A stretch of 64,000 nucleotides of DNA from Acidobacteriota bacterium (GTDB lineage Bacteria > Acidobacteriota > Blastocatellia > RBC074), in assembly GCA_018268995.1 (NCBI GenBank), contig JAFDVL010000009.1, positions 987 to 64,986 on the forward strand, written 5' to 3'. Each line of letters begins with the position of its first letter. Positions within the stretch are counted from its first letter, which is position 1. Position numbers and translations under genes: made by a program. Below, piece after piece: positions 4,947 to 52,656 of the stretch. Under the pieces are notes generated by a model. That model saw only the letters and a list, made by a program, of their open reading frames with translations, did no database searches and had not been told where the DNA came from.

Positions 4947-7878
4947 ATGCACGAGAACGACGAAGCCCTGACGCTTGCAATGGCACCTGCCATGACGCCA
5001 GAACGCTGGCAACACATCGAAACGCTGTTCTATGCCGCGCTCGAACGCGAGCCGCCGCAGCGCGCGGCATTTCTAGCCGAAGCCTGTGCCGACGAGAAAG
5101 CCTTGCGCGAGGAAGTGGAAGCGTTGCTGGCGAAAGCGGAGGTGGAAAGTTCTTTTGACAATCTCGCGGTACAGGTAGCGACAGAAGTACTCGCCACTGA
5201 CAAAGCCGCAACGATTGTGGGGCGAATGATGGGCCATTATCGCTTGCTCGCGCATTTGGGGGCAGGCGGGATGGGCGAAGTCTGGCGTGCCACCGACACC
5301 CACCTGCACCGCGAAGTCGCGCTGAAAGTTTTACCTGCTTCCTATACCAGCGATCCTACGCGGTTGCGTCGCTTTGAGCAGGAAGCCCGCGCCGTTGGGG
5401 CGCTCAATCATCCCAATATTTTGACGGCGTATGACTTTGGCACGCACGAGGGCCATCCCTTCATCGTGATGGAATTGCTGGAAGGCGAAGATTTGCGCGC
5501 TGTCTTGCAGCGCGGCCCGATGTCGCTGCGGCTGGCAGTTGACTATGCCGAGCAGGTGGCGGAGGGCCTAGCGGCGGCGCACGAGAAGGGCATTGTTCAT
5601 CGTGATCTGAAGCCAGAGAATTTATTTGTTACGAACGACGGGCGCGTCAAGATTTTGGATTTTGGTTTAGCCAAGCTGCGACCGCTCCCCTATGTCAAAG
5701 CAGCTCACCAATCCGGGCACAGTGATGGGAACGGTGGCGTATATGTCGCCCGAACAAGTGCTGGGAAAAGACGTGGAGCAACGCTCCGATATTTTCAGCT
5801 TCGGCATCATTCTGTTTGAAATGTTGAGCGGCAAACGCGCGTTCACGGGCGATTCGCACGTCGAAGTGATGAACGCGATTCTGAAAGCAGACCCGCCCGA
5901 ATTGAGCGAAATCAACGCCAGGATTTCGCCCGCGTTAGAAAAAATCGTGCGCCGTTGTTTGGAGAAAAAACCAGAACGCCGCTTTCATTCGGCGCACGAT
6001 CTGGGCTTTGCACTCGAAGCGTTGTCCACGCCCAGCACATCGGGTGCGAATCGCACCGCAGTCGTATCTACGCTCAACACAACATCCATCAAGCGGAGCG
6101 GCTGGCGGGATCGTGGCTGGATGCTGGCCGCAGGGGTGTTGGGCTTGGCGGTTCTCGTGATGAGTTTTGCGTACTTCTTCAAGCGTTCGGCAACTGCACC
6201 GCAGTCCGCGCGGCTGGCGTTTGTGCCGCCAGAGAACCTGACGTTTGACAATGCATCGTGGGACTCTTGTATCGTCTCACCCGATGGACAGAAACTGCTG
6301 TTTACAGGCCGCTCTGCCGATGGCAAACGACAACTCTGGGTGCGCTCGCTCAATGCCTCCGACGCGCAGTTGCTCCCCGGCACAGAAGACCCGATGAGTC
6401 CTTTCTGGTCGCCGGACAGCCGCTCGATTGGATTTGCTTCCAAAGGGAAGCTGCGACGACTTGATCTTAATGGCGGGCGTCCACAGGAACTTGCTGATGC
6501 AGTCAGATTTCATGGCGCAGCCTGGAGTCATACAGGCGTCATCCTCTTTCAACTATCTTCCGGCAGTGATTTGTTCCAAATCCCCGACACAGGTGGTCAG
6601 CCACAGAAAGTGCCGTTGGATTTTAAGGGGTACGTCCCCACGCACCTGAACCCATCTTTCCTGCCCGATGGTCGTCACTTCCTCTATCGCCTGATTGACA
6701 ATGTAAGTGAGCCAAAAGTTTTCGTTGGTTCCCTTGATTCCACAGAGGTGAAACAGGTGCTGTCCGATGGTGGGCCTGCTTTGTACGCGCCGCCCGGCTG
6801 GATCGTCTTTGTGCGCAATGGGGCATTAATGGCGCAGGCGTTTGATGCTGAGAGGCTGGAAATTAAAGGCGAGGCCGTTCCCATCAGCCAATCGAATAAC
6901 AATGCTCTGATCATTGGCGTCCCTTTTTCCGTCTCGACGAATGGCGTGCTGATCTGGCAGGGAGATCGGCGACCGCCTTATCAGCTTGTCTGGTTTGATC
7001 GTGAGGGCAACCAGCGTGGTGTCGTCGGCCCGCCCAGCAATTCGACGAACGGACATCACCCGCGTCTCTCGCCAGATGGAAAAAAAGTTGCTCTCTTTCG
7101 CACCGACCCGCAAGTTCGCAATGACGACATTTGGGTGATTGATCTGGCGCGGAATCTCCCGCTCCGAGTGACGACGAGTCCCTGGTACGATCAACTTCCA
7201 ATCTGGTCACCGGATGGGAGCCAGATCGCCCATTTTAGAGGTGCGCCAGATGCCAGCACGAGTGGTCTTTTCAAAACAGCAACCAGCGGTACGGGAACAG
7301 AAGAGCGTTTAATGAACATCCCGGCTCGTACCACGGATTGGTCGCCGGATGGACGGTTCATTGTTTACACTTTTCCCAAACAAGGGAATCGCTGGGATGT
7401 GTGGTGCCTACCACTTTTTGGCGACCGTCAGGCGTATACGCTACTGGCTACTGAGTTCTCAGAATCCCAGGGACAGTTTTCGCCTGATGGGCGCTGGCTG
7501 GCTTATGTCTCGGATGAATCGGGTAGCTATGAAATCTACGTGCAACCGTTCACGGCAGAAGGGAAACTGGGCGGCGTTAAAGTGCGAGTCTCTCCACAAG
7601 GCGGCAATCATCCTCGTTGGCGACGTGATGGGCGGGAACTATTTTATGTTGCTACAGATGGGCAGATGATGACGGTTGCAGTGAAAACAGGCGGCACTAC
7701 TTTCGAGGCAGATGCTCCTGTTGCCTTATTCAAAACACATCTGATGCCACAACTTTTTAACCCTACGACTGAATATGATGTGACACCGGACGGGCAGCGA
7801 TTTCTGGTTGGGACGCTGGTCGGAAAACCAGCGCCCGTCAGCGTGATTTTGAATTGGGAGGCAGAGGCGAAGAAGTAG
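4947..7878 (+). pseudogene. Ser/Thr protein kinase (ECF-sigma-associated N-terminal domain + Hanks kinase) - TM helix - TolB-like beta-propeller, interrupted by an apparent 1-nt frameshift near 5689-5692. Pseudogene, sequencing error, or programmed shift.
   Basis: ORF 4947..5819 carries kinase motifs ([34 protein letters not shown]) and then runs out of frame. ORF 5692..7878 in the +1 frame resumes exactly with the expected activation-loop/P+1 sequence ([18 protein letters not shown]…[11 protein letters not shown]). It continues through a TM segment (WMLAAGVLGLAVLVMSFAYFF) and TolB-like beta-propeller repeats (SPDG…, WSPDG…). The shift maps to the CCCC-T-ATG homopolymer at about 5686-5692. 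Confidence 0.6.
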
Positions 7879-9300: not shown

Positions 9301-9383
9301 ATAGGTGTTGGTCTGCAAACAGAAGAAAGGCGTCTGTGAGCGAAAGCTTGCGACGCCTTTTGTTCTCTCAGGGGAAGAAAATC

Positions 9384-10115
9384 ATGAAGACAGATAATCT
9401 CCATCTGGATCAACGTGGTCTACGGCGAATACAACGCCGCGAATGGTTGAAGATGCTGCCACTCGCTGCGCTGGGCGCAATCGCAGTTCCGAGCGTCAAC
9501 GAAAAGCTCATCAAGCGCGGACTGGCCTTGAGTGATCGCGCTTCGGAAACGTTCTTTCGCCGACAACAGCTCGCGCCCACATTTAGCGACCGTGAGGTGA
9601 CGGCCTTTGATAAATTTCCCATCAATAGCTATTCGACCTATGACGCAGAAGCTGATCTCGCCAATTGGAAGTTGATTGTCGAAGGGATGGTTGCGCGCCC
9701 CGGTGAATACACGCTGGAGCAAATCAAAGCATTGCCGAAGCAGGTGCAAAATGTGAAGCATATTTGCATCGAAGGCTGGAATGTCATTGGCAACTTCGGA
9801 GGTGCGCGATTGGCCGATTTTCTGCAATTGGTCGGCGCTGATCCGCAGGCGCGATTTGTCGAATTCACATGCCTTGATGATTACTTCACTTCGTATGACA
9901 TCGCAAGCTGTCAGCATCCGCAAACATTGCTTTGCTACGAAATGTATGGGCAGCCACTGACCAAAGAACACGGCGCGCCGCTCAGAATTCATACGCCGAT
10001 CAAGCTTGGCTACAAATCCGCCAAGCATCTTTTCACGTTGCGAGTGTCGAATGTCTTAAGCCGTGAAACAGGCTTTTGGGAAGATCAGGGCTATTCGTGG
10101 TACGGCGGGATTTGA
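9384..10115 (+). CDS. Periplasmic molybdopterin-dependent oxidoreductase of the sulfite-oxidase fold (MsrP/YedY-like), Tat-exported
   Basis: Tat motif RRIQRREWLK + hydrophobic stretch. Oxidoreductase_molyb-like core (…KHICIEGWNVIGNFGGARLADF…CYEMYGQPLTKEHGAPLRIHTP…). The start is probably the ATG at 9384 (MKTDNL…), because the ORF-track start at 9336 overlaps a terminator hairpin at about 9327-9362. Confidence 0.7.
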   Translation: MKTDNLHLDQRGLRRIQRREWLKMLPLAALGAIAVPSVNEKLIKRGLALSDRASETFFRRQQLAPTFSDREVTAFDKFPINSYSTYDAEADLANWKLIVEGMVARPGEYTLEQIKALPKQVQNVKHICIEGWNVIGNFGGARLADFLQLVGADPQARFVEFTCLDDYFTSYDIASCQHPQTLLCYEMYGQPLTKEHGAPLRIHTPIKLGYKSAKHLFTLRVSNVLSRETGFWEDQGYSWYGGI

Positions 10116-10153
10116 GAAAGAAATCAGGTGGTGGGTCAACCACGGGAGATAAA

Positions 10154-10227
10154 GGCGGAAGCCCGCCTGTGAAGGAGGGCGCGGAAGCAGTGCGTAATAC
10201 GCCCTCCTTCACAGTCGGGCTTCTGCC
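10154..10227. repeat. Copy 1 (2 stem mismatches) of a hairpin-forming intergenic repeat: GGC(A/G)GAAGCCCG(A/C)CTGTGAAGGAGGGCG - loop - CGCCCTCCTTCACAGTCGGGCTTCTGCC
   Basis: The same ~28-31 bp inverted-repeat arms are seen again at 14500-14573 with a perfect 31-bp stem. The loops differ (19 nt versus 12 nt). This copy lies between the MsrP-like and cytochrome b genes. Confidence 0.75.
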
Positions 10228-10280
10228 TTCATTTCTCTACCTTCAGCCACTACCAGAAATCAAAGGGCAAAGGCAAAAAT

Positions 10281-10991
10281 ATGGCAGTGACTAAATCAGG
10301 ATTAGCAATTCCGGCAATCGAAGCTGAGCGCAAAGGCAAGCACGAAACGTATACGCGCGAGCATCCGTGGCTCGTGCGTTTTACGCATTGGCTCAATGCT
10401 ATTTCGTTGTTGGTGATGACGGCGAGTGGGCTGCAAATTTTTATGGCGTTTCCCAGCTTCGGCGACAAAATTCCGCAGAAAGACTTGGTACACGTGCCCG
10501 CAGTTTTAGGCCTTGGCGGCTGGCTCGGCGGGGCGTTGCAATGGCATTACAGCTTTGCTTTTTTGTTTACGGCAACCGGGCTGGCGTATGTGCTTTACTT
10601 GTCCCTCAGCGGACACTGGCGACAGGTCATTTTGCAGCCGAAAGAATTGCGCGGCATTTGGCCGATGGTGCGGCATTACTTTTTCTTTCAACCCAAGCCG
10701 CCGCAGCTTGAGCCGTACAATCCACTACAAAAACTTGCCTATACCAGCGCGATTTTGCTTGGCATCGGAGCTGTTCTGACAGGCATTGCTTTATCAAAGC
10801 CTGTGCAATTTTCGTGGTTTGTGCAATTGCTGGGGGGATTTGGATTTGTTCGCGTCTTTCACTTTGTCGCAATGGCCGGGTTTTTGGCGTTTATACCGGG
10901 ACATTTGCTGATGGTGGCTTTGCACGGATGGAATAATTTTTATTCGATGATTATTGGCTGGAAACGCAGTCCTGATTATCTTGCGGATTGA
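10281..10991 (+). CDS. Membrane di-haem cytochrome b (cytochrome b561 / Ni-hydrogenase b-type family; likely electron-donor partner MsrQ-like for the upstream molybdoenzyme)
   Basis: Multiple TM helices with conserved His (…HPWLVRFTHWLNAISLLVMTASGLQIF…FHFVAMAGFLAFIPGHLLMVALHGW…). It is co-directional with and 165 bp downstream of the MsrP-like gene. Confidence 0.65.
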   Translation: MAVTKSGLAIPAIEAERKGKHETYTREHPWLVRFTHWLNAISLLVMTASGLQIFMAFPSFGDKIPQKDLVHVPAVLGLGGWLGGALQWHYSFAFLFTATGLAYVLYLSLSGHWRQVILQPKELRGIWPMVRHYFFFQPKPPQLEPYNPLQKLAYTSAILLGIGAVLTGIALSKPVQFSWFVQLLGGFGFVRVFHFVAMAGFLAFIPGHLLMVALHGWNNFYSMIIGWKRSPDYLAD

Positions 10992-12046: not shown

Positions 12047-14425
12047 TCAGGGTATTGTACTTTTGAGCCGTTGCAGCAGCGCGGCGTAGCGCGGATCAGC
12101 GCGTAATTTGTCGAGACGCGGATCAGCTTTGATCAGTAGCATGGAAAAAACATGTTCATCGTGGGCTTGATTCAGCAGCTCAAACACGCGATCAAAATCA
12201 CCGAGTTGCAGGTGAACCAATGCCAAATGAAAAGGGGAGACATATTTTGTGGCTGATAACTGTTTCAGTTGCGCGAGCGTTGCTTCGGCTTCGCTTCGTT
12301 GACCTGCTGCTCCGTATGTGTAGCCCAGCAGCGCCAGGATGTAGGCGTTATTGGCAGACATCTCAACCGCTTTTTTCAACGCTGCAATGGCTTGCTGATG
12401 CAAACCCTTTTGGGCATAGGCCAGGCCAATTGTTTGATGCGCTGGGATAAAGGTGGCGTCCATTTCCAACGTTTTGCGGCAGCGTTCAATGGCCTGATCG
12501 TACTGACGCGCAAACCAGTAAATTTCTCCAACATCGTTATTGATGCTCAGCGAAACTGGGTCGAGTTCCTGGGCGCGCTTGATTTGTTGGATTGCTTCGT
12601 CAAGTCGCCCCTGAGCAACCAGGTCATACGCATACCAATGATGTGCGGTCGGATAGTTCGGGTTGAGTTGAAGGCTACGATTAAATGATGCTTCTGCACC
12701 TGTCAAATCCCGATCCTGAATCATTTTGGCAAAAGCCAGAGAGGTATGCGCTTCAGCGAGCGTCTCATCCAACTCAACCGCTTTGATTGCCGTGGATTTG
12801 ACGCGTTTTGCTGTTTCCAATCGCGTTAGGGAATCATCCGGCCAGACGGCGAAAGCATCGGCCAGTCCCGCATACGCCAAGGCATAATTCGGGTCTACTT
12901 TGATGGCTTGCTGATAATATTCGACAGATTTTTTTACTCCTTCGGCAGTGCGTTTATTCCAATAAAACCGGCCTTTTAGATAAGCCTGATACGCTTCGAT
13001 GTTTTCAGTATGCTGCTTGGCCACAAGCTGTTGCTGTTCATTCGTCAACCGCAACTGTAATTTTGCCGTGATCTCACGCGAAATCTCAGATTGGACAGAA
13101 AGCAAGTCGGCCAATTTGCGATTGTATTGTTCGCCCCAAAGTTGCGCGCCATCTTTGACATCAATCAACTCTGCCTGAATGACCAGATCATCGCCACGTT
13201 GTAAAACCCGCCCGGTTAGCAGGGCCTGAACTTTCAGTTCGCTGCCGATTTTTTGCGGATCAACTTCGCGACCTTTGTACCGAAACGAGGTCGTGCGCGC
13301 CATCACGCGCAGGTTTGGCAAATGGGAAAGGCTGTTAATCAGGCTTTCTGTGATGCCATCGCTTAAATACTCAACGTTCGCATCGGCACTGGTAAATGGC
13401 AAAACGGCAATAGCCTCGACCTCTTGTTGATTTCGGCTACGGAAGAAAAATGCTCCGGCCAGCGTGCCAATCAACAAAAGCGCGATAAGCGCACCGATCA
13501 GCAGGCGGGAAGACTTACGGGGAATCGGAATTGGTTCAGCCGTAGCGGGAGCGACGGCCAGCGCTTCTTCCTTTTTTGCCAGGGGCGAGGGAGCTATGGC
13601 ATTTAGTCGAAGCTCCGCACTTTGCAGCACAGGCTGAATTTGTCCCGCCGCAATTTGCTCATACAAGGCAATTGTTTTGGGTTCCGGCTCTGCATCTAGT
13701 TCTTTGCGCAAAATAGCCTGGCACCGTTGGAATTGTGACAACGCTTCATGCCGACTGCCAATCAAGGCGTACAGACGCATGAGTTGCCGATGAGCGGATT
13801 CATGAGACGGATTGAAGGCGATCAGGTGCTGGATTTGTTCAATGCTTTGCTGCCATTGCCCGGCTGCTTCATAGATTTGCGCGGATTCAGAAAGCAATCG
13901 TTCAGCCAGCCGACTTAAGCGCTCCCGCCGGGCCGCTGCCCAGTCTTCGTAACGATCTTCGGCCAGCAACTCTCCGGCATATAACTTCAACGCCGCTTCA
14001 TAATCACTGATGGCTTTGGTCTTGAGTGCAACGGTTGCGCATTGCTCAAATTCTTCGACATCAATCCACAAACCACCGGGGGCGCGTAATAATACGTGTT
14101 GGTCGTGCGTCAGAATAAAGCGTGAATCGGTGCCGGATTTTAGCTCCGGTTCCAGCGCACGTCGTGCCGCGTGAATGATTTTGTTCAGATTATTGGCGGC
14201 TAGCTCAGGCTCTTGTTCCGGCCATAAGAATTCCATTAACTGTTCGCGATGGAGTTGATGCTGTGGTGTGAGGGCGAGAATTTTGAGCAGGGCTTTGGCT
14301 TTGCGGCGAGTCCATACACGTTCTTCGATCAGCAGGCCATCAACACAGATGCAAACTGACCCAAGCAAACGCAATTCAAGTTTTCCAGTAGTGGCTGGCT
14401 CCTGACTTGTCATTTTGTATCTCAC
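12047..14425 (-). CDS. Membrane-spanning one-component transcriptional regulator: N-terminal OmpR/SARP-type winged helix + BTAD, single TM, periplasmic TolB-N-like module and C-terminal TPR array (CadC/ToxR-like topology)
   Basis: wHTH (LELRLLGSVCICVDGLLIEERVWTRRKAKALLKILAL…). TM (LLIGALIALLLIGTLAGAFFF). A conserved post-TM module (IAVLPFTSADANVEYLSDGITESLINSLS…VQALLTGRV…LIDVKDGAQLW) is shared with ORFs 40487..42481 and 42626..44569, followed by many TPR-like repeats. Confidence 0.75.
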   Translation of the reverse strand: MRYKMTSQEPATTGKLELRLLGSVCICVDGLLIEERVWTRRKAKALLKILALTPQHQLHREQLMEFLWPEQEPELAANNLNKIIHAARRALEPELKSGTDSRFILTHDQHVLLRAPGGLWIDVEEFEQCATVALKTKAISDYEAALKLYAGELLAEDRYEDWAAARRERLSRLAERLLSESAQIYEAAGQWQQSIEQIQHLIAFNPSHESAHRQLMRLYALIGSRHEALSQFQRCQAILRKELDAEPEPKTIALYEQIAAGQIQPVLQSAELRLNAIAPSPLAKKEEALAVAPATAEPIPIPRKSSRLLIGALIALLLIGTLAGAFFFRSRNQQEVEAIAVLPFTSADANVEYLSDGITESLINSLSHLPNLRVMARTTSFRYKGREVDPQKIGSELKVQALLTGRVLQRGDDLVIQAELIDVKDGAQLWGEQYNRKLADLLSVQSEISREITAKLQLRLTNEQQQLVAKQHTENIEAYQAYLKGRFYWNKRTAEGVKKSVEYYQQAIKVDPNYALAYAGLADAFAVWPDDSLTRLETAKRVKSTAIKAVELDETLAEAHTSLAFAKMIQDRDLTGAEASFNRSLQLNPNYPTAHHWYAYDLVAQGRLDEAIQQIKRAQELDPVSLSINNDVGEIYWFARQYDQAIERCRKTLEMDATFIPAHQTIGLAYAQKGLHQQAIAALKKAVEMSANNAYILALLGYTYGAAGQRSEAEATLAQLKQLSATKYVSPFHLALVHLQLGDFDRVFELLNQAHDEHVFSMLLIKADPRLDKLRADPRYAALLQRLKSTIP

Positions 14426-14499
14426 ACAAAACCGGGTGTTTCGAGCGCTATTCTAAACTACGAAGCAAGTCGAGAGAAGGCTGGGAACGGTTTTAGAGA

Positions 14500-14573
14500 G
14501 ACGGCAGAAGCCCGACTGTGAAGGAGGGCGTGGTTTCTGTTACGCCCTCCTTCACAGTCGGGCTTCTGCCGTC
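14500..14573. repeat. Copy 2 (perfect 31-bp stem, 12-nt loop) of the same hairpin repeat family as 10154-10227
   Basis: GACGGCAGAAGCCCGACTGTGAAGGAGGGCG / CGCCCTCCTTCACAGTCGGGCTTCTGCCGTC are exact reverse complements. The element lies in the divergent intergenic region between the CadC-like regulator and the large secreted protein gene. Confidence 0.8.
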
Positions 14574-14784
14574 TGCACGGTTCTTTCTCAAAACACATTA
14601 TTCAGCGACGAATAGACTGAATTATGCTAAGCTGACGCAGTTTTTATAAGCTCCCACAACTTAGCCGGCACGTGCTCGTAACAGAGCAGCAAAAATATTT
14701 CTATCCTCGCCACTTGAATAAAAAGCAAGCGGCACTCCCCCCAGTTGATTTTGTCTGCTTGCGAAATAAAACGAGGAAACTACG

Positions 14785-17700
14785 ATGAAAAAGCAAATTC
14801 TGGTGTATCTGTTCGCCCTATTTTTATTGGGTCAGGCCGCGTTCGCTCAGCAAAAAAAGATTTATATCGCGCTCGACGATCATACTGATTATGTTTACGC
14901 CCTGGACGAAGAAGAGCATCGGCAAATCTTTCTGGAAACGTTGGATTACTATTTAAACCTCGCCGACGCTACCGCCAATAATCCCTCTGCACACCAAAGC
15001 CGTTGGAACTGTGATGGCAGCTTTTGGCTGTGGACTTACGAGAAAAACAAATCGCAGGCGGACTTTGATCGCCTGATCAATCGCGTTCGTGATGGGCATA
15101 TCAGTGCGCCGCTGAATGCATTGGTTTCGACCTATGGCGCGCAACCCTCCGAAGCTGTGCTACGGGGTATGTATTATCCCGGCTCGCTTGAACGGCGGTT
15201 TGGTTTGCGGTTCCCGCTGGCTGTGGCGATGGAAAACGCGACGATCCCCCTGGGGCTGGGCGCGCTCTGGGCTGGAGCGGGTGCGAAATACAGTTGGCGC
15301 GGCATTTGCGGTTGCGCCTCCAAAACTCCTTATGGCGGAAACCGACCAGACATTTATTGGTGGCAGGGGCTGGATGGCAGTCGCGTGCTGATGAAATGGA
15401 ATTACTTTTACCCGTATGAAGGCGCTTCGATTGGGGATTATCAGGAATGTCGCTTTCCTGAACGTGCAGTGAATACTGTCGAGACGAATCAAAACTTCCT
15501 GACCAATTGGCCTTACAACGTGATCGGCATTTTCGGCAAAGGCGGCGATGATGCGAAAACCTTGACCGATAGTTTCGTAACGTTTGCCCAAACTAACTCC
15601 AATGCAAATCGCCAGATTGTCGTTTCCAATCAGGAAGATTTCTTCCGCGACTTTGAATCCAGTTATGGCGCAAGCGTCCAACCGCACACGGCAAGCTACG
15701 GCAACGAATGGGATATATTATGTGCCTCAATGGCAGAGGTCTCAGCCAGCGTCAAGCGCGGCGTTGAGAAGCTGCGCGGGGCTGAAGCCATTCAAACTTT
15801 AGTGAGTCTGAAAAATCCGAACTTTATGCGTGACCACGTCGCCGAACGTGATCAGACGTGGATGAATTTGGGGCTTTTCTGGGAACACGATTGGACGGCG
15901 GATGGCGCGATTCGGGAACAGCGTGATGAATGGCAGCGAAAAATTGCGAATCAAATCACTGGGTACGTGGATACCCTGGCAAAAGATTCCGCCGCCGCGC
16001 TGGGCGCAATGATTCCAAATCCAAGCAGCAACAAACGTTTCTATGCCTTCAATCAATTGAGCTGGACGCGCACCGATGTTGCCGATGTCGCCTATGCTGA
16101 AACTGATCCGATGCATGTGGTGGATGTCAGCACTGGATTGGAAACGCCTTCGCAATTCGTGACGATTGATGGGCAGCGCTATTTACGGGTGCTGGCGAGC
16201 GACATTCCGCCCGTTGGTTATAAAGTCTTTGAGATTCGCTCCGGCACGCCGGGCAATTTTTCTGATGCCGCCAGCGTTTCCGGCAATGTGATTGAGAATG
16301 CGTTTTATCGTCTGACGATTGGCAACAATGGCGCGATCAAAAGCCTGATTGACAAGACACGCGGCGATCAGGAATTTGCCCGCGAAATTAATGGCAGATT
16401 CATCAATGATCTTGGCGCAAGCGAAGGCAGTTTTGAGGTCGAAAGCGTTGGCCCGGTTTCTGTGACGATCAAAACTATCGCTACTGCCCCGTTGCAACAC
16501 ACCACACGCATCACTTTATTCCGCGATTCCGACCGCATCGAAATCCGCAATGAAATTAACCAGAATTTCAGCGAGGTTCATACGTGGGGATACAGCTTTA
16601 ATCTGGACAATCCCGATACGTGGCATGAAGAAGTTGGCGCAGTCATTCGCGCTAAGCAACTGGCACAAGGCGGACATTATGCAGATCGCGGCGCGCGGCT
16701 GGATTGGCAAACGCTCAACCATTTTGCCGATATGACAGGCAGCAATAACACAGGCGTGACCCTGTCGAATGCGGATTGTTATTTCATGCGCGTTGGCAAT
16801 AGCGACGTGCTGACGCTGGACACCAACACGCCGCAGCTTTCACCGCTGGTTGGTGGGCAGGTTGACGGCGCTCGCCTTGGAATTTCAGATCAGGCAGGTG
16901 ACGCAAAATTCTTGCAACGCTTCGCCTTGAGAACACATGGCGAATACGACGGAACGGCGGCAATGCGCTTTGCTCTGGAGCATCAGAATCCCTTCGTTGC
17001 ACAACTGATTACAGGTGGGAGCGGCTATCCTGAAACGACCTATTCGCTGGTGAATATTTCCGATCCGAATGTGTTGTTGTGGTCAATCAAACCGGCAGAA
17101 GAAGGTATCGGGCAAGGCATCATTGCCCGTGTGTACAATGTCGCGAATCAAGCGACAAATACTTCCTTGCAATTGGCCAATTCTATCACCAGTGCCAATC
17201 GCACATCACACATTGAAACCAATCTGGATTCAGTTGCACCCAATGATGGTACGCTCCCGCTCACTTTTGCGCCTCAGCAATATCAAACCTTCCGCCTGTT
17301 TACGAGCGAAGTCATTAACGATGTGCCGCCTGCGGTCAGTATCGTTGGCGTAAGCAACGGTTCTTTATTTGCCGCGCAATCGAATATTCGACTGGATGCC
17401 GTCGCCAGCGATGCCGATGGGAGTATTGCGAAGGTTGAATTTTTCGATGGGACGACGAAGCTTGGAGAAGCTGCCGCTGCGCCGTATAGCCTGACCTTGA
17501 ATTCACTTCCATCTGGCAGCCATCAATTCATTGCCCGCGCGACAGACAACAAAGGCAAAGCTGTTTCTTCCGCCCCAATCCGCTCGATTGTGACGAATGC
17601 TGTAGCTGGCGTTACCAGCGTTTCTGCCGCAAGCTATCGTCGTGTCGTGTTGGCGCGCGGGGCAATCGCTTCGGCCTTTGGCACAAACCTGGCCACTGCC

Positions 17701-18321
17701 TCTGGCAGTGCAACGGGCACTCCGTTGCCGACGAATCTGGCAGGCACGACCGTCACAGTCAAAGACAGTTTAGGACGACAGCGATTTGCCTCTTTGTTTT
17801 ATGTGTCGCCAACGCAGGTCAATTATCAAATCCCCGCTGACACTGCGACGGGCACGGCAAAAGTTGAAATCAACAGCCCCGGCATTCCTGCGCAAACGGA
17901 GTTCATTCAAATCACAAACGTTATGCCCGGATTGTTTTCTGCCACGACTGATGGACAGGGGATTGCGGCGGGCGAAGTGACAAGAATTCGTGGCGATGGT
18001 TCGCGCAGTGAAGAAAAAGTGGTGACGTATGATCCCACGATAGAGAAGTTCGTTGCGCTCCCGATTGATCTTGGGATTGAAACAGATCGCGTCTTTTTGA
18101 TCTTGTACGGCACTGGCCTGCGCGGGCAGAATCTGAAGGCATCAGCTTTTGTTGGCGGTGTAATTACCCCAATTGATTTTATCGGTGCGCAGGGAACGTA
18201 TGTGGGGTTGGATCAAGTGAATTTACTACTGCCTCGCAGCCTGATTGGACGCGGCGAGGTGGATATTCATCTGACAGTGCAGGGACAGGCTGCAAACACG
18301 GTTAAGGTCAAGATCAAGTAA
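14785..18321 (+). CDS. Large secreted (1178 aa) carbohydrate-active-like protein. N-terminal ~800-aa catalytic-like region (glycoside-hydrolase/deacetylase-type fold, family not resolved), bacterial Ig-like (Big) domain and Solibacter-type C-terminal beta-sandwich domain.
   Basis: Signal peptide MKKQILVYLFALFLLGQAAFA. The N-terminal IYIALDDHTDYVY metal-binding-like motif resembles the GH38/GH57/polysaccharide-deacetylase superfamily. A Big-type Ig domain follows (…VASDADGSIAKVEFFDGTTKLGEAAAAPYSLTLNSLPSGSHQF…). The C-terminal ~120 aa (…TQVNYQIPADTATGTAKVEINSPG…VDIHLTVQGQAANTVKVKIK) resembles the TIGR03437 Solibacter C-terminal domain. The family assignment was made without a search. Confidence 0.55.
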   Translation: MKKQILVYLFALFLLGQAAFAQQKKIYIALDDHTDYVYALDEEEHRQIFLETLDYYLNLADATANNPSAHQSRWNCDGSFWLWTYEKNKSQADFDRLINRVRDGHISAPLNALVSTYGAQPSEAVLRGMYYPGSLERRFGLRFPLAVAMENATIPLGLGALWAGAGAKYSWRGICGCASKTPYGGNRPDIYWWQGLDGSRVLMKWNYFYPYEGASIGDYQECRFPERAVNTVETNQNFLTNWPYNVIGIFGKGGDDAKTLTDSFVTFAQTNSNANRQIVVSNQEDFFRDFESSYGASVQPHTASYGNEWDILCASMAEVSASVKRGVEKLRGAEAIQTLVSLKNPNFMRDHVAERDQTWMNLGLFWEHDWTADGAIREQRDEWQRKIANQITGYVDTLAKDSAAALGAMIPNPSSNKRFYAFNQLSWTRTDVADVAYAETDPMHVVDVSTGLETPSQFVTIDGQRYLRVLASDIPPVGYKVFEIRSGTPGNFSDAASVSGNVIENAFYRLTIGNNGAIKSLIDKTRGDQEFAREINGRFINDLGASEGSFEVESVGPVSVTIKTIATAPLQHTTRITLFRDSDRIEIRNEINQNFSEVHTWGYSFNLDNPDTWHEEVGAVIRAKQLAQGGHYADRGARLDWQTLNHFADMTGSNNTGVTLSNADCYFMRVGNSDVLTLDTNTPQLSPLVGGQVDGARLGISDQAGDAKFLQRFALRTHGEYDGTAAMRFALEHQNPFVAQLITGGSGYPETTYSLVNISDPNVLLWSIKPAEEGIGQGIIARVYNVANQATNTSLQLANSITSANRTSHIETNLDSVAPNDGTLPLTFAPQQYQTFRLFTSEVINDVPPAVSIVGVSNGSLFAAQSNIRLDAVASDADGSIAKVEFFDGTTKLGEAAAAPYSLTLNSLPSGSHQFIARATDNKGKAVSSAPIRSIVTNAVAGVTSVSAASYRRVVLARGAIASAFGTNLATASGSATGTPLPTNLAGTTVTVKDSLGRQRFASLFYVSPTQVNYQIPADTATGTAKVEINSPGIPAQTEFIQITNVMPGLFSATTDGQGIAAGEVTRIRGDGSRSEEKVVTYDPTIEKFVALPIDLGIETDRVFLILYGTGLRGQNLKASAFVGGVITPIDFIGAQGTYVGLDQVNLLLPRSLIGRGEVDIHLTVQGQAANTVKVKIK

Positions 18322-18340
18322 GAACATCGGGGAGGAACAC

Positions 18341-18440
18341 CGTACCGTAGACTGTCCAGTCTGCGGAGTCACAGCGACAATTTCCTTGATCAAAACAGGA
18401 CGTTCTTGGCATCAGCCGCAGACTGGACAGTCTACGGTAC
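18341..18440. terminator. Long bidirectional hairpin between convergent genes: 25-bp perfect stem (CGTACCGTAGACTGTCCAGTCTGCGG / CCGCAGACTGGACAGTCTACGGTAC) with a 49-nt loop
   Basis: Seen directly in the sequence. It sits between the stop of the 14785..18321 gene (18321) and the stop of the minus-strand methyltransferase (18432). Confidence 0.6.
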
Positions 18441-19322
18441 AGCGTCTGCGTTCATCTGACGAATCTGTGGCAAATCCTCTTTCCGCAACAGCATCCAGAA
18501 CAAATCATCTGCCAGATAGGGCAACGGCAAATATTCCGGCAGCAAATTCAAGAGCCTCCCTGCCTGGTTTCCTAGCGGTATTCCTTCCAGCTTGTATTGC
18601 AACAATGATTTTGCGTGACCGCCGTTGATCCATTTTGAGGGTCTGCCGCATGCGACTTCTCGAAATCCATATTGTGCAGCCAGTGACTTCAGCGTCGTCG
18701 GCGAAAACCAATGCAACACGCTTGGCGGGCTGTATTCATGCCAGTTCTGGCCAAAGAATCGTGCCGCAAGGCTATCTTTGTTCCAGGTTTCGATGAGCCA
18801 ATATCCTGAAGGTTTTGTCGCATCACAGGCCACTTGCAAGGCGCGTCGCAAATCGGCGAAATGGGCGACGACTTGAATCATGCTGACGAGGTCATATGGT
18901 TCAGTGGTCTGTAAGTTTTCCAATGCGCCTGCCTGCACCGGAATCCCCAGCGTTTCACGCGCATACGACGCCATCTTCGGATTTGGCTCAATGCCGTGCC
19001 CCTGCCATCCACAATCCATAAAGCCCTGGAGCACGAAGCCGGCTGCTGCGCCTACGTCCAGCATCGTTCCCGCTGACAGATAATTCGCTAATCGCTTGCC
19101 GTACCATCGTCCGTGATTGCGCAGGATGCGCGCTTCGCCCAGGTAATCCGGGTAACCCGCGCCGCCACCCTGAAAATATTGGTCATCGTACACTTGTTGC
19201 GTGTGTGTCGCGTCAACTGAAACATCGGCGAAGCGATGGTGACAAGCTGAGCAATCGCGGATTCCATAGCCGTGAGCTGTAAATGTCACCTGACTAGATT
19301 GATTGCAAATCGGACAAAGCAT
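18432..19322 (-). CDS. Class I SAM-dependent methyltransferase with N-terminal Cys4 zinc-ribbon (last gene of the glycosylation operon)
   Basis: Zinc ribbon CPICNQ…CSACHH. Methyltransferase motif I (MLDVGAAAGFVLQGF) and post-I acidic motif. The start lies 3 bp after the stop of the upstream GT-C gene. Confidence 0.75.
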   Translation of the reverse strand: MLCPICNQSSQVTFTAHGYGIRDCSACHHRFADVSVDATHTQQVYDDQYFQGGGAGYPDYLGEARILRNHGRWYGKRLANYLSAGTMLDVGAAAGFVLQGFMDCGWQGHGIEPNPKMASYARETLGIPVQAGALENLQTTEPYDLVSMIQVVAHFADLRRALQVACDATKPSGYWLIETWNKDSLAARFFGQNWHEYSPPSVLHWFSPTTLKSLAAQYGFREVACGRPSKWINGGHAKSLLQYKLEGIPLGNQAGRLLNLLPEYLPLPYLADDLFWMLLRKEDLPQIRQMNADAVP

Positions 19323-33247: not shown

Positions 33248-33408
33248 TGGCTCCAGATAAATTTCTTGCAGGGCAAATGTCAGAGATAAAAAGTAAACTA
33301 TAGGCGCGGCCTGTATTGCAACAAAATACTTGTGGCGACGAATTTCAGCGATGCTTTTGGCATTTCCTGAAATTCGTCGCCACTTGGATGGAATGATTTC
33401 CTGATTAC

Positions 33409-37040: not shown

Positions 37041-37844
37041 GTGTCAAACAGACAATTTATGTCCCTATTAACGGAACCTTTTCAAAAGCATCAACAATCT
37101 GTGCGCATTCCCCTCTGGCGCGAGGCGGCCCTGATTCGGGAATGGGTGCAACTCTGGGCCGCTCCCGTATTTTACGGCAAAGGGATTCCATTTGGGAAAG
37201 CTCAGGCCGTAATTACGATCCCCGGCTTTATGTGTCGTGATGTGTATACCAATTGTCTGACGAAATGGCTGGCTCGCATTGGCTATCGCGCTTATCCGTC
37301 GGGATTGGAACGAAACAATGACTGCATTGAAAGATCGCTTGACCGCCTGCTGCAAACAATTGAAACCGCTGCGACTGAAACGAATGGGAAAGTGCATTTG
37401 ATCGGGCATAGTTTAGGCGGATTGTTGGCGCGGATTGCCACCGCGCGACGGCCTGAATTCGTCGCCTCTGTCATTACACTTGGCTCGCCCTTTCGCGGCA
37501 TTCGCGCCCATTCGTATGTTCTTTGGCTCAGTCGGCGTGTGCGTCAGCGTGTGCAATCCGCCGACGTGCCGCATTGCTTTACAGGGTATTGTGACTGTGC
37601 TTCGATCCTGGCATTGCAAAAGCCCTGGCCGCAACAAGTGCTGAACACTGCGATTTACACCAGGGCCGATGGTGTTGTGGATTGGCAAATGTGTGTGAAT
37701 GAAGACCCGGCAAGCAATTTTGAAGTGTCAGGAACGCACGTCGGGTTGGTTTTTAATCCTGATGTTTACCGATTAATTGCAGGACAATTGGCTCAAGCGA
37801 ATGGGGCGAGGATTGCGCCGATAAGTCAGTACCGAGACCGGTAG
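37041..37844 (+). CDS. Alpha/beta-hydrolase-fold lipase/esterase-like protein (PGAP1/lipase-class-2-like)
   Basis: Nucleophile elbow HLIGHSLGG, followed by …LGSPFRG…. Confidence 0.6.
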   Translation: MSNRQFMSLLTEPFQKHQQSVRIPLWREAALIREWVQLWAAPVFYGKGIPFGKAQAVITIPGFMCRDVYTNCLTKWLARIGYRAYPSGLERNNDCIERSLDRLLQTIETAATETNGKVHLIGHSLGGLLARIATARRPEFVASVITLGSPFRGIRAHSYVLWLSRRVRQRVQSADVPHCFTGYCDCASILALQKPWPQQVLNTAIYTRADGVVDWQMCVNEDPASNFEVSGTHVGLVFNPDVYRLIAGQLAQANGARIAPISQYRDR

Positions 37845-37845
37845 G

Positions 37846-37888
37846 GAGCGCGACCCTATACTATTGGACGCTCCCTACCGGTCTTGGT
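37846..37888. terminator. Bidirectional terminator hairpin between convergent genes
   Basis: A 15-bp perfect stem (GACCGGTAGGGAGCG / CGCTCCCTACCGGTC) with a 13-nt loop. Confidence 0.7.
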
Positions 37889-37893
37889 ACTGA

Positions 37894-40486: not shown

Positions 40487-42481
40487 TTATCGGGCAAAAA
40501 ATTGCCGCTTGAATTCCTCGTGCCGTTGTCGTGCTATCTCCAGCAGCTTTGTGTACTCGGCCTCACCGCGCAAATTGCTGAGCAGCGGATCATTGACGAA
40601 GTACGGATAGCAAAAAAATCCGCCTTCAATGCTACGCCGAAGCAGCCGCAACGCGGCAGATTTATCGCCTAGTTCAGCAAAGGCTTGCGCGACCTTGTAC
40701 AGTGCTTCGGCATCAGTCACTTTTTGCCTTTCAACTTGTTGTTCGATAGCGCGCAATTGTTCCAACCCCTGTGTGGTTTGTCGGGCGACGTGCAATCGTA
40801 AGGCGTGACCGATTTGGATGTATAACGAGGTCGGATTGCTTTGGTAGGCATCGTCAAAATCAGACATGGCGCGTTCCCAGTTCTTTAAGTAGTAATGACC
40901 CAGACCACGATAAAACATAATAAAGGCTGAAGGGGTTTTGGTCGGCAAACTGGAAAGGAACTTTTCGTATTGCCCATCATAAAAATAACTATTGAAAGCT
41001 GAGCTGTTGAGCTTTACTTCAGGGTCAAGTTGCCGCGCGCGTTCGCCTTCTGCAATAGATTCTTTCAGCATTCCGCCGAACCGATAAGCGTAGCCGAGTT
41101 CCCAGTGCGCTTCAGGATGGTTTGGGTTTGTTGCCAGCGCTTCACGTAACAGTGGCACCGCCTGTTCGACACGTCCCGTATCGGTGAACAGGTTTGCCAT
41201 GAAAATGCGTGCTTCGATCAAGTCAGGATTTAGCGACAATGCTTTTTCATAATCGCTCTGTGCCTTGCGGTAATATTCTTCACCACCGAATTCAAACGCA
41301 GCCTTAGCCGTGTGTGCGCGTCCGAGGTGTGCCCAGGCCAGCGGATAATTGGGCGAAAGACGCACCGATTGTTCCAACATCTGCGTGGCCAGATTGAATT
41401 CATTGCTCGCGTATAAATCCACCCCACGCAGATAAAATTCATATGCCTGTGCATTATCCGGCACGTCGCGTTGCAATCGTGCAGATTCAGCAGAGGTTAA
41501 GGACAAATGCAAGCCGCGAATAATTTCCTGTGCGACACGATCCTGTAGGATCAACTGACCTGTATCTTTCAAATCAATTTCATCTTTCCAAAGCAATCTA
41601 TCCGCCACCACGTCAATCAACTGGGCGGTGACACGCAAATGGCTTTCTTCTTTCAGATAGCTGCCAACCAACAAGGTATCAACGTTCAAGTCCGTCGCCG
41701 CCTTGCGCACATCGAATTCCTGATTTCGGTACTGGCTGACATAGGACGACGGTTTCACGGTCAACGCACTGACATAACCAAGTTTCGTGATGATGGCATC
41801 CGCGAGCGGAAAGCCTAAATAATCGGTTGCTGCATCTGGTTTGAGATTACGAAATGGCAAGACTGCTAAGCGTCGTGCCTGCGGGGAGTTTTTTTGCTGC
41901 CACTTAAATGCTAGAAAGACTCCGACCAGCAGCACCACAAACAGCATCGCCAGGCCGATAAAAAGAATTCTTGCTCTTTGTGGCTTTGTGGTCTGGCCCT
42001 CAGCTATTGGTGTGACGGGATGACTGGGGTCTGGAGTTGATGCCGTATCTTCAGTTGATGGCGGTAACTCTTCGCTTTTGTCCGGGATGGATTTTTCTGC
42101 GGGGATTTTCTGTACGGGAGCAACAAAGCGATAGCCGCGCCGAGGCAAGGTTTCGATGTATTTGATGCCATCGCTGTTTTCGCCTAAGGCTTTGCGCAAG
42201 GTGGAAACGTTTTGTGCCAGATTGGCTTCTTCCACATAAGTATTCGGCCAGACACGATCCATCAAATCGTCTTTGCTCACAAGCTGTCCACTATTTTCCA
42301 GCAACACGAGCAACGTATCGAAGGCTTTGGGGGTCAACCAGACAATCTCGTCTGTCCGCCAAAGTAATCTTTCCTGCGGATCAAGCCGGAAGGGGCCGAA
42401 TTGATATAAAAAATAAGCTGGATCGTTCATCTGCTCTTTCAGAATCGTGTCAGGCACACGCCCATATTTACTGCTTGCCAT
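40487..42481 (-). CDS. CadC-like membrane one-component regulator: N-terminal OmpR-type winged helix, single TM, periplasmic TolB-N-like module + TPR domain
   Basis: wHTH (…FGPFRLDPQERLLWRTDEIVWLTPKAFDTLLVLLENSGQLVSKDDLMDRVWPNTYVEEANLAQNVSTLRKAL). TM (ILFIGLAMLFVVLLVGVFLAF). Conserved periplasmic module (LAVLPFRNLKPDAATDYLGFPLADAIITKLGYVS…) and TPRs. Confidence 0.8.
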   Translation of the reverse strand: MASSKYGRVPDTILKEQMNDPAYFLYQFGPFRLDPQERLLWRTDEIVWLTPKAFDTLLVLLENSGQLVSKDDLMDRVWPNTYVEEANLAQNVSTLRKALGENSDGIKYIETLPRRGYRFVAPVQKIPAEKSIPDKSEELPPSTEDTASTPDPSHPVTPIAEGQTTKPQRARILFIGLAMLFVVLLVGVFLAFKWQQKNSPQARRLAVLPFRNLKPDAATDYLGFPLADAIITKLGYVSALTVKPSSYVSQYRNQEFDVRKAATDLNVDTLLVGSYLKEESHLRVTAQLIDVVADRLLWKDEIDLKDTGQLILQDRVAQEIIRGLHLSLTSAESARLQRDVPDNAQAYEFYLRGVDLYASNEFNLATQMLEQSVRLSPNYPLAWAHLGRAHTAKAAFEFGGEEYYRKAQSDYEKALSLNPDLIEARIFMANLFTDTGRVEQAVPLLREALATNPNHPEAHWELGYAYRFGGMLKESIAEGERARQLDPEVKLNSSAFNSYFYDGQYEKFLSSLPTKTPSAFIMFYRGLGHYYLKNWERAMSDFDDAYQSNPTSLYIQIGHALRLHVARQTTQGLEQLRAIEQQVERQKVTDAEALYKVAQAFAELGDKSAALRLLRRSIEGGFFCYPYFVNDPLLSNLRGEAEYTKLLEIARQRHEEFKRQFFAR

Positions 42482-42625
42482 ACCGCTTGAGTGCTACTTA
42501 TTGGACGGTGAAAGGAGAGTTCCATTTGTAGACTGACGCTGCCGGGAGTCAGCCCTCAAGAATGGATTGTAGCTGGTCGAGCCGGCAAAACTATTCACCG
42601 CGCGGACTCGAAAGGCCACGATAGT

Positions 42626-44569
42626 TTAGAAAAAAGTTCTTTTGAATTCTTCATGGCGTTTGCGCGCCAATTCCAACAATACCGCGAATTCTTTGTCCTT
42701 GCGGAGTGAATCAAGCAAGGGATCGTTCGTAAAATACGGATAACAAAAAAATCCACCTTCCACGCTGTGTCGCAGCACGCGAAGCGCCGCTGCCGTGTCT
42801 CCCAGTACGGCATACGCCTGCGCAATTTTGTAAATCGCTTCGGCATCATTTACCCCGCGCGCCTCAATCACCTTTTCTGTTTCTTTCAATTGTGCAATCC
42901 CGACTTGATTTTGCCCGGCAATGACAAATGACAACGCTTTCCCGATATTGGTATGCAGCAATTCGCGACTTGCCTCAAAGGCTTGATTGAATTCCGTCGT
43001 AGCGCGCGAAAAATCCTTTTGATAATAAAATCCCAACCCACGATAAAACCCAATGTACGGCGAACTGGTACGGGGCAGTTTGTTCAGAAAGGCGTCGTAT
43101 TGCCCCAGATAAAGATAGGTCGCAGGAACGGAGTTGTTGGCTTTGACTTCCGTGTCGAGTTGTCGCGCTCGCTCGACTTCTTCCAGCGATTCTTTCAGCA
43201 TTCCACCGAAGCGATACGCATAGCTCAATTCCCAATGGGCCTGCGCCAATGTGGGATTGGTTTTGAGCACTTCACGCAGGAGCGGCACCGCCTGTTCGAC
43301 GCGATTCGTATCGGTCAGAAAAGTTGCCATCGAAATACGGGCTTCGTTTTGCTCCGGGTTCAGCGCCAGCGCTTTTTGATACGCTTGCTGGGCCTTGGCA
43401 TAATCTTCACGACCTCCGAGATTAACCGAAGCCTTTGCTGTATACGCTGAGCCGAGATGTGCCCAAGCCAGTGCATAGTTGCCGTCAACTGCCAGGGATT
43501 TCTCGATCATTTCAATTGCTTGTGGCAGTTTGTTGATAGCGTACAGATCAATCCCACGAAGATAATATTCATAGGCTAATGGGTTTTGCGGAACATCGCG
43601 TTTCAATCGTTCTGCCTCTGCTGAAGTCAGATTGAGTTGCAAGCCACGGATGACTTGCTCAGCAACACGATCCTGCACCGTCATCAGATTTTCGTATTTC
43701 AGTGCCAGCGCATCTTTCCACAGAATTTCATTGGTCACGACATCCACTAATTGAGCCGTGATGCGCAATTCATCGCCTTCTTTGATGTATGTGCCTGTCA
43801 GCAACGTATTGATATTCAAATCAACGGCGACGCGTTTGGGATCAATATTCTGATCGCGGTATTTGTCTACATAGGATGATGGACGCACGGTCAGCGAACT
43901 GACATAACCAAGTTTCGTGATGATCGAATCCGCCAGTGAAAATCCAAGAAAGTCAGTGGTTGCTTCCTGCTTGAGATTGCGAAACGGCATGATTGCCAGC
44001 GTGCGAGGTGCTGTGATTCCAGGATTCGTTTTGGCTGGTTGTCGAAAGAACGCAAAGTAGGCGAACGCCAGTGGGACAATGATCAGGGATAACGCAATCG
44101 CCAACTGATAGGGCAAGAGCTTTTTCGTTTCGGGTTGTGATGTGGGTGTTTGTGCTTCTGCGACAGCGTCATATTCCTGTGTTTGCATCTCGCTCAGGGC
44201 CGTTCCCTGAGCGTAAGAAGCAAATCCGTTTTCCTGAATTGCTGTAACGTTAACGGTAAAACGATACCCTCGCTTCGGAATCGTTTGGATCAATTGCTGT
44301 CCATCTGGCCCCAGCGCTTTTCGCAACGTTGAAATGTTTTGCGCCAGGGTTGTTTCTTCAACTTTGGTGTCTGGCCAAATGCGGTTGAGCAACTCTTCTT
44401 TGGTTAAGACGCGCCCGCTGTTTTCGACCAAAACCAGCAAGGTCTCAAATGCTTTTGGCGTCAGCGGAATCGGAACTCCGTCGCGCCACAGAATGCGCTC
44501 TTCACGCTCCAGGCGAAACCCCTCGAATTGGTATAAAACCGTATCCTGACTGGTCTTAGCCTCTTTCAT
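42626..44569 (-). CDS. CadC-like membrane one-component regulator, tandem paralog of 40487..42481
   Basis: Same architecture and clearly alignable blocks (…YQFEGFRLEREERILWRDGVPIPLTPKAFETLLVLVENSGRVLTKEELLNRIWPD… and …LAIMPFRNLKQEATTDFLGFSLADSIITKLGYVSSLTVRPSSYV…). Confidence 0.8.
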   Translation of the reverse strand: MKEAKTSQDTVLYQFEGFRLEREERILWRDGVPIPLTPKAFETLLVLVENSGRVLTKEELLNRIWPDTKVEETTLAQNISTLRKALGPDGQQLIQTIPKRGYRFTVNVTAIQENGFASYAQGTALSEMQTQEYDAVAEAQTPTSQPETKKLLPYQLAIALSLIIVPLAFAYFAFFRQPAKTNPGITAPRTLAIMPFRNLKQEATTDFLGFSLADSIITKLGYVSSLTVRPSSYVDKYRDQNIDPKRVAVDLNINTLLTGTYIKEGDELRITAQLVDVVTNEILWKDALALKYENLMTVQDRVAEQVIRGLQLNLTSAEAERLKRDVPQNPLAYEYYLRGIDLYAINKLPQAIEMIEKSLAVDGNYALAWAHLGSAYTAKASVNLGGREDYAKAQQAYQKALALNPEQNEARISMATFLTDTNRVEQAVPLLREVLKTNPTLAQAHWELSYAYRFGGMLKESLEEVERARQLDTEVKANNSVPATYLYLGQYDAFLNKLPRTSSPYIGFYRGLGFYYQKDFSRATTEFNQAFEASRELLHTNIGKALSFVIAGQNQVGIAQLKETEKVIEARGVNDAEAIYKIAQAYAVLGDTAAALRVLRHSVEGGFFCYPYFTNDPLLDSLRKDKEFAVLLELARKRHEEFKRTFF

Positions 44570-52531: not shown

Positions 52532-52656
52532 CGCGAAGCGCCTGGGAGCGCAGGCATCCTTGCCTGCTTGTATTCGTACGCTGTAATTTTTCTCGTCGCG
52601 AATTTGCTCTCCAAGTCTGAAGTAGGCAGGGATGCCTGCGCTCCCAGGGCTACGCG
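52532..52656. repeat. Long imperfect hairpin (~30-bp stem, ~54-nt loop) between the ECF sigma gene and the downstream WD40 kinase gene
   Basis: Left arm CGCGAAGCGCCTGGGAGCGCAGGCATCCTTGCCTGC (52532-52567). Right arm GTAGGCAGGGATGCCTGCGCTCCCAGGGCTACGCG (52622-52656). The reverse complement matches with 3 mismatches and 1 indel. Confidence 0.6.

Follow-up and report, generated by a model that had tools for sequence, protein, structure and literature searches.

A dispersed family of long hairpins in Blastocatellia, probably a small palindromic element of the REP/MITE type

Most of what is known of small palindromic repeats (REPs, REPINs and MITEs) comes from Proteobacteria, Cyanobacteria and a few other groups. 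Among the MITEs, the Correia elements of Neisseria carry 26-bp terminal inverted repeats (TIRs) and a TA duplication, and their hairpin, once transcribed, is processed by RNase III; inversions of hairpin loops are known from chloroplast non-coding DNA. REPs have stems of 5–13 bp in units of 20–40 nt (Table 1 of PMC3733652), and both REP/BIMEs and REPINs go with RAYT Y1 transposases in Proteobacteria (PMC3116915, PMC3733652). Within the Acidobacteria, Di Nocera et al. 2013 (PMC3733652) distinguished a separate group of Y1 transposases that have long TIRs on either side ('TIRYTs', 'TIRtrons'), and in Koribacter versatilis the TIRs of one of the three TIRYT genes belong to a repeated family (PMC3733652). 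A process that acts on existing hairpins, the correction of quasipalindromes by template switching, has also been described (PMC7202029). For the Acidobacteria, our literature search turned up mention only of the TIR families beside Y1 transposases in Acidobacteriia genomes, and it returned no description of the family reported here for Blastocatellia, in line with an earlier note on this DNA, which had supposed that no such family was documented for the lineage.

The family came to attention as two hairpins in a stretch of 64,000 nt of a metagenome-assembled genome (MAG) from the Blastocatellia, phylum Acidobacteriota (GCA_018268995.1, contig JAFDVL010000009.1; hereafter the window), which the earlier note had read as a dispersed, REP/MITE-like repeat rather than as two convergent terminators. 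Further copies elsewhere, together with orthologous sites that are empty or shorter, uphold that reading. We consider it probable that the hairpins represent a small, non-coding, non-autonomous and untagged palindromic element of Blastocatellia, REP/MITE-like in character, that is mobilised in trans and whose arms are kept by pairing or selection.

Structure and extent of the family

Copy 1 consists of a 28-nt left arm at 10154–10181 (GGCGGAAGCCCGCCTGTGAAGGAGGGCG), an 18-nt loop at 10182–10199 that is unrelated to the other loops of the family, and a 28-nt right arm at 10200–10227 (CGCCCTCCTTCACAGTCGGGCTTCTGCC) that equals the family consensus; the arms mismatch at two positions, one G·T and one C/T, as the earlier note had counted. 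Copy 2 has two 33-nt arms (14499–14531 and 14542–14574) that are 100% complementary and stand 10 nt apart, around a loop at 14532–14541 that differs from that of copy 1, again as noted before; the stem is perfect, as had been claimed, but 33 nt long rather than 31 bp. The near-identity of the arms reported for 10154–10227 and 14500–14573 is borne out by a 24-nt arm core, CGCCCTCCTTCACAGTCGGGCTTC, which matches the window four times, twice per strand (10158–10181 minus, with one mismatch; 10200–10223 plus; 14507–14530 minus; 14543–14566 plus), and is matched in none of 100 dinucleotide-preserving shuffles. The predicted RNA fold of copy 2 has a free energy of −75.6 kcal/mol on the plus strand (z = −13.5) and −72.6 kcal/mol on the minus strand, and the block containing copy 1 is predicted to fold at −84.2 kcal/mol (z = −10.6), with z-scores over both copies of −10.6 to −14.0. 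Copy 1 is nested in a longer imperfect palindrome (10124–10257; 58-nt arms, 78% complementary) and is the only copy in which the palindrome extends substantially beyond the arms (19 of 30 positions); in other copies the extension is 2–4 nt.

A count of copies in other genomes, which the earlier note had proposed, yields the same arms at 21 further, unrelated loci of Blastocatellia genomes and metagenomes: six in STL-ACI7, one in MAG-252 and 14 metagenome copies. The genome scan used an exact arm pattern (a 23-mer) against one genome per GTDB species and gave seven loci, all in these two Blastocatellia MAGs; the metagenome scan gave 15 contigs from soil, which reduce to 12 distinct loci with 14 copies, one contig carrying three. 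At every locus from the two scans the paired arms lie no more than about 135 bp apart. Copy number in STL-ACI7, at six loci by exact 23-mer, is apparently low. Flanks are unrelated between copies, without flanking homology, and the genes adjoining the STL-ACI7 copies are ordinary housekeeping genes such as valS, folE, nadA and MIOX (myo-inositol oxygenase). Aligned genes of STL-ACI7 and the window are 71–80% identical at the nucleotide level, yet the arms are identical. The arm was not matched in viral contigs, plasmids or phages (IMG/VR, PLSDB and INPHARED), and a phage or plasmid vector was rejected on these zero matches.

The arm consensus reads GGC[A/G]GAAGCCCGACTGTGAAGGAGGGCGT, and the metagenome copies reveal a second arm type, B, ending in GACCGTCAGGGAGGGC. 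The two arms of an element co-vary, in that perfect A/A' and perfect B/B' palindromes (the latter in L019b and L019c; loci are numbered with the prefix L) occur along with B/A' hybrids. Because the search pattern demanded one A-type arm, pure B elements are under-sampled and hybrids over-represented. When the arms of 18 loci are aligned on their own, 91.3% of cells pair, and 9 of 30 pairs show changes on both sides; the covariation score is attained by none of 500 shuffles, and pairing falls to 36–47% once the partner columns are slid. This covariation supports the hairpin, and does not separate selection on RNA from concerted evolution at the DNA level. A covariance model built from 18 copies detected no further copy in the window or the syntenic loci. 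Its sole extra match, weak at 29.6 bits (L007, 4830–4889), is a different palindrome, 19 bp and perfect (GGAACTGTAAGGCAGGTTA / TAACCTGCCTTACAGTTCC), situated 22 nt after a stop codon; judging from sequence, it may be a distant relative of the family or a chance match.

Loops range from 10 to about 85 nt (10–18 nt in the window) and mostly differ between copies. Those of the STL-ACI7 copies L002 and L007 share 12 of 13 bases in opposite orientation, as would be expected if the whole element is copied, and several loops begin with TAAC; these likenesses indicate that loops are homologous but evolve faster than arms. The longer 'loops' of L005, L009 and L014 are themselves palindromic, so that the stem simply continues. 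Decay is also seen, with degraded copies at L001, L004 and L021 and solo arms at L010 and L013.

A near-identical contig, L008 (GCA_044222815.1; 99.6% identity over 17.6 kb of the window), carries both copies, and the comparison with this one assembly revealed no strain-level presence/absence polymorphism. The loop of copy 2 is reverse-complemented there (14250–14262; TAACAGAAACCA versus TGGTTTCTGTTA), and the arms have a 3-nt deletion and a 1-nt insertion relative to the window. Either the palindrome really is heterogeneous, with a loop that flip-flops, or the assembly or consensus is wrong at this perfect inverted repeat. Template-switch correction of quasipalindromes (PMC7202029) would explain the perfect arms, the changes made in both arms, the palindromic 'loops' and, in copy 2, the inversion of the loop; it is, however, a process of maintenance and not of dispersal, and leaves the arrival at new loci unexplained.

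Set beside REPs and REPINs, the family likewise comprises short, non-coding, dispersed extragenic palindromes, found for the most part behind genes, in intercistronic gaps or between convergent gene pairs. In both, conserved halves are inverted about a spacer that is conserved less, no target-site duplication is obvious, and elements persist in a lineage with turnover of the sites that they occupy (PMC3116915, PMC3733652). The family departs from REPs and REPINs in size, with stems of 28–33 bp and a unit of about 70 nt, and in the unpaired GTAG/CGTC tag, which is absent from the 21 copies compared, where the bases next to the arms vary or extend the palindrome by 2–4 nt (AC/GT, GT/AC, AGAC/GTCT). 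The inverted pair with variable spacer that is typical of REPINs is present, but single arms are not palindromes in the way that each REP of a REPIN is, having only a 4-bp GCCC...GGGC self-complement. The apparently low copy number is another difference, as is the lack of a RAYT in the sequence screened: a six-frame search of the window and loci L001–L023 for the HUH...Y (Y1) motif was negative, and none of the 28 ORFs scanned with Pfam, which lie in the window or next to copies, proved to be a transposase. On that scope, a nearby RAYT/IS200-type transposase was rejected as a candidate.

By its terminal inverted repeats, its length below 300 bp and its lack of coding sequence, the family conforms to the description of a MITE. 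With Correia-type MITEs it shares TIRs of ~26–30 bp, non-coding character, orthologous sites that are filled in one genome and empty in another, and a long duplex that, if transcribed, might be a substrate for a double-strand RNase or alter the expression of neighbours; it differs from them in having almost no internal sequence, loops that are unrelated between most copies and no consistent target-site duplication, and no parent IS with these ends was found at the loci of the two scans. By analogy, the nearest precedent and best lead would be the TIR repeat families of Acidobacteria (PMC3733652), which belong to the same phylum and are moderately abundant long inverted repeats, unrelated to GTAG REPs and often arranged as inverted dimers. 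Unlike those families, the one described here lacks the GGGGWSAS motif common to some of their TIRs, no TIRYT gene flanked by its arms was seen in the window or loci L001–L023, and the published data (PMC3733652) come from Acidobacteriia, not Blastocatellia.

Sites occupied and copies gained

By our own mechanical ORF calls at 23 loci, the start of 16 copies is at most 25 nt past a stop codon, and 4 occupy gaps between diverging genes; as for REPs, the placement is extragenic and mainly beside unidirectional or convergent genes. At L006, the hairpin fills the entire gap between convergent genes (1 and 5 nt on either side), and at L007, L011 and L020 it fills the intercistronic space of tandem gene pairs. 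A GC-rich hairpin a few nucleotides after a stop codon recalls an intrinsic (Rho-independent) terminator. However, the stem is two to three times longer, the same sequence recurs at unlinked loci and in different genera, and some copies stand between genes that diverge or within a closely spaced gene pair. No U-tract is present either: the 12-nt tails of the copies contain no T runs and have a T fraction of 0.31 versus 0.23 in the background. A consensus terminator scan called neither window copy, and we rejected a canonical intrinsic terminator on the missing U-tract and the negative scan.

Copy 1 lies between a gene with a molybdopterin oxidoreductase domain (Oxidored_molyb; 9336–10115, plus strand, stop codon at 10113–10115) and a gene of cytochrome b561 type (10281–10991, plus strand), at least 53 nt from the next start codon. 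This junction measures 165 nt in the window and 17–34 nt in the relatives L024 (STL-ACI7), L026/27 and L028. The material that is present in the window and absent from the relatives is a 128-bp block at 10127–10254, an imperfect palindrome centred on the family hairpin, in which 44 of 64 arm positions are complementary. It is flanked by an 8-bp direct repeat, AGAAATCA, on the plus strand (10119–10126 and 10255–10262), a candidate target-site duplication; the empty site in L028 reads GAAAAATCAAATGG. The outer 27-nt parts of the block were unmatched in the other sequence compared. The candidate duplication occurs at copy 1 only and bounds the larger block, not the hairpin itself, and the direct repeats flanking 18 other copies are never longer than 6 nt nor consistent; target-site duplications, which the earlier note had suggested looking for, were not seen consistently. 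A 12-mer to the left of copy 1 (TTTGAGAAAGAA, 10111–10122) recurs reverse-complemented to the right of copy 2 (14581–14592; blastn E = 0.7), probably by chance, though as a likeness in sequence it could hint at a target preference.

Copy 2 sits in a 359-nt gap separating a BTAD/TPR regulator gene (12047–14425, minus strand) from a gene for a 1178-aa GH38C/Big_7 protein (14785–18321, plus strand), and since these genes diverge it cannot be a terminator for its neighbours. The site spans about 143 nt in the window versus 22 nt in STL-ACI7 (L024). Two blocks conserved in all relatives flank the insertion, TTCTAAAC at 14455–14470 (TAGAAT on the minus strand) and TGCTAAGCT at 14620–14635. Read from the alignment, they look like the −10 elements of two divergent promoters, in which case the hairpin seems to have landed in the inter-promoter spacer; the consensus scan did not report either block.

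Orthologous sites that are empty or much shorter indicate that the window copies were gained. STL-ACI7 is without both of them and carries at least six others, and the reverse case is given by its copy L007, which separates a GDSL-lipase gene from one for rhamnulose-phosphate aldolase: the hairpin is absent from L037, where the gap is 19 nt and the aldolase is 91% identical in protein, with no clean junction or duplication visible between the two sites. Filled and empty orthologous sites are what is looked for in a MITE. A composite transposon bounded by both window copies was also considered and rejected, as gene order between DinB and the GH38C-like gene is unchanged in relatives that lack the hairpins.

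Explanations for the family

The reading that we favour would run as follows. An element of ~70 bp, made of two 28–33-nt inverted arms around a short, freely varying loop, would be moved to new intergenic sites by an enzyme acting in trans; gain at new sites is shown by the empty or shorter orthologous sites. Copies would persist where they do little harm, that is, within 25 nt after a stop codon, in short intercistronic gaps or between divergent promoters, and copy 1 lies within a two-gene unit whose genes are kept 17–34 nt apart in relatives. Processes that depend on pairing in DNA (template switching within the hairpin, as in quasipalindrome correction), selection on the stem, or both, would copy changes from arm to arm, and the arms would for that reason be near-perfect and co-varying; template switching could flip loops as well. 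When transcribed, the element is predicted to form a 30-bp duplex of −73 to −84 kcal/mol without a U-tract, and by analogy with intercistronic REPs and Correia elements its effect on RNA would be that of a 3'-end barrier or a target for a double-strand RNase, not that of a canonical terminator. Several observations temper the case for transposition. Loops are far more diverged than arms, and the arms therefore need an additional constraint. No mobilising enzyme was found in the screened sequence, there is no consistent duplication, and the apparent copy number is low. Different long hairpins at the same sites in relatives could also mean that the hairpin itself is selected and replaced by recombination, not by transposition.

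The main rival, which we rate as rather unlikely but well ahead of the readings that follow below, takes up this last point: the hairpin would be a module selected by the host at 3' ends, for termination or protection from 3' exonucleases, and copied by recombination or gene conversion, with nothing selfish about it. The frequent start within 25 nt of a stop codon (16 of 23 copies) and the co-varying stems would fit such a module, as would the many other long, unique hairpins at gene ends of the window, where roughly one gene end in three has an uninterrupted stem of at least 12 bp, and the long hairpin of one sequence or another that stands right after nadA in each relative examined. Against it, copy 1 splits a gene pair that relatives keep 17–34 nt apart, four copies lie between divergent genes and need no terminator, the tails have no U-tract (T fraction 0.31 versus 0.23) and the terminator scan is silent. 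Selection on the stem alone, moreover, would not keep 28 identical bases across genomes that are 71–80% identical in aligned genes, and copies share no flanking homology that could drive recombination. It is this sequence identity, conserved far beyond the needs of pairing and across diverged genomes, that speaks for a recognition site of a sequence-specific DNA protein, serving recombination, segregation, nucleoid structure or a very long operator, with the 28-nt arm as its functional unit; occurrence in both orientations relative to genes would suit it too. We nevertheless find this quite improbable, given arms of 28–33 nt that are much longer than known operators, neighbours that are unrelated housekeeping genes, free decay (degraded copies L001, L004 and L021; solo arms L010 and L013) and sites that are present in one relative and absent from another.

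Less probable still is the idea, raised in the earlier note, that the family acts as a strand-specific regulatory RNA, a mimic of the Shine-Dalgarno sequence in which AAGGAGG is sequestered or displayed. A-type arms do contain AAGGAGG with its complement CCTCCTT, and B-type arms keep a GGAGG core. The motif is, however, locked in a perfect stem of about −75 kcal/mol; it becomes AGGGAGG or degenerate purine runs in B-type arms, and several partner arms degenerate to AAGAGAGG, AGCTAGG or AGAGAGG. Relative to the gene upstream, the hybrids L011 and L012 have one orientation and L015 and L020 the opposite one, which speaks against a strand-specific RNA; copy 1 lies 53 nt or more from the next start codon. 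A search for strand-specific function through the asymmetry of G·U versus A·C pairs, combined with hybrid orientation, gave small, mixed counts and no signal, and Rfam 15 returned no match at the gathering threshold, only models of eukaryotic miRNA precursors far below it. The proposed titration or mimicry of a ribosome-binding site is not supported by these results. Virtually no weight is left for the last alternative, two terminators that converged by chance (which the earlier note had itself put forward as the fallback) or a palindromic chimera of assembly. Palindromes can be mis-assembled, and the loop and an arm of copy 2 do differ between two near-identical assemblies. Already the shuffles refute this explanation, as do the further genome and metagenome copies: contigs from NCBI, JGI and Logan, which are independent assemblies, contain the same arms internally, and the flanks are unique in each case.

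Replacement of hairpins at shared sites

To the known small dispersed palindromic repeats, the present results add a defined Blastocatellia family with perfect stems of 28–33 bp. It is a marker for strain typing and for assembly problems in MAGs, since perfect palindromes can flip or break assemblies (as in the difference between L008 and the window). With copy 1 inserted into a redox unit whose two genes normally lie close together, the family is a candidate for modifying the expression of operons. The element alone is of modest interest. It is also an entry point to the fast replacement of long hairpins at the same intergenic sites, and it is this turnover at shared sites that deserves genome-wide attention.

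Three such sites were seen: the 3' end of nadA, the lipase/aldolase gap and the region upstream of the BTAD regulator gene. Flanking proteins there are 85–95% identical, yet the same orthologous position holds different, very long, near-perfect hairpins, or none, some of them built of 8–10-nt tandem units that are mirrored on the other arm. After nadA, STL-ACI7 has a family element (L005, 7776–7866) and each of four relatives a different long hairpin: those of L030 (3573–3700) and L033 (3570–3710) consist of 9-nt GTCTRTAGA units mirrored on the other arm, that of L032 (2741–2870) of 10-nt GTCTGGGAAA units, and that of L035 (3576–3720) of a purine-rich versus a pyrimidine-rich arm. At the site orthologous to copy 2, L029 (4386–4500) has a hairpin containing units of both GTCTGGAAAA and GTCTGTAGA types (GTCT-type); as GTCT-unit hairpins thereby occur at two or more non-orthologous sites, they may form another dispersed family. 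At the position that corresponds to L007, L036 (2372–2460) has a different, long and imperfect hairpin of GCAAAGNN units, which starts within the 3' end of the lipase coding sequence, and its aldolase is 95% identical in protein. To judge from the different hairpins at the nadA, L007 and copy-2 sites, permissive intergenic sites in this group exchange their hairpins quickly.

A more far-reaching proposal is that a dedicated process of hairpin turnover operates at intergenic sites of Blastocatellia and supplies gene-end structures, with the family as its visible multi-copy product. We regard this as unlikely, and slightly more so than the host-selected module discussed above. A single-strand HUH-type enzyme, or a systematic 'palindrome birth' by template switching, may be candidate mechanisms. 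Dedicated turnover, if true, would give mobile or structural DNA in bacteria a mode of evolution that has not been described, and an enzyme that drives the replacement would be worth finding.

The window has other long hairpins at 18337–18445, 33332–33383, 37826–37893, 48676–48881 (with 48753–48806 nested inside it), 52541–52648 and 62904–62967. These six have near-perfect stems of 17–34 bp and unique sequences, lie just after gene ends or between convergent genes, and showed no recurrence in roughly 250 kb of related sequence. At 51485–51579, inside the minus-strand ORF 48924–52508, a purine-rich arm (AGAAGGAGAGAGGGAGTGACGGAGTGACGGAGCGA) faces its pyrimidine-rich complement, in a style that resembles the L035 hairpin after nadA; the ORF may really be two genes.

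A few further features of the window were noted. Relative to L008, 26 nt are missing at 5696, and a Ser/Thr-kinase/PD40 gene that is single in L008 (985 aa) is consequently split into overlapping ORFs (4947–5819 and 5692–7878); the difference is either a frameshifting deletion or one of assembly. On the minus strand, two paralogous genes stand side by side (40487–44569; ~650 aa each), and their stretches of 71–77% identity are spaced 2130–2133 nt apart, which points to a tandem gene duplication. Finally, a 111-nt direct repeat with 82% identity is found at 7–117 and 7767–7877, the first copy at the edge of the window and the second being the 3' end of the kinase/PD40 gene.
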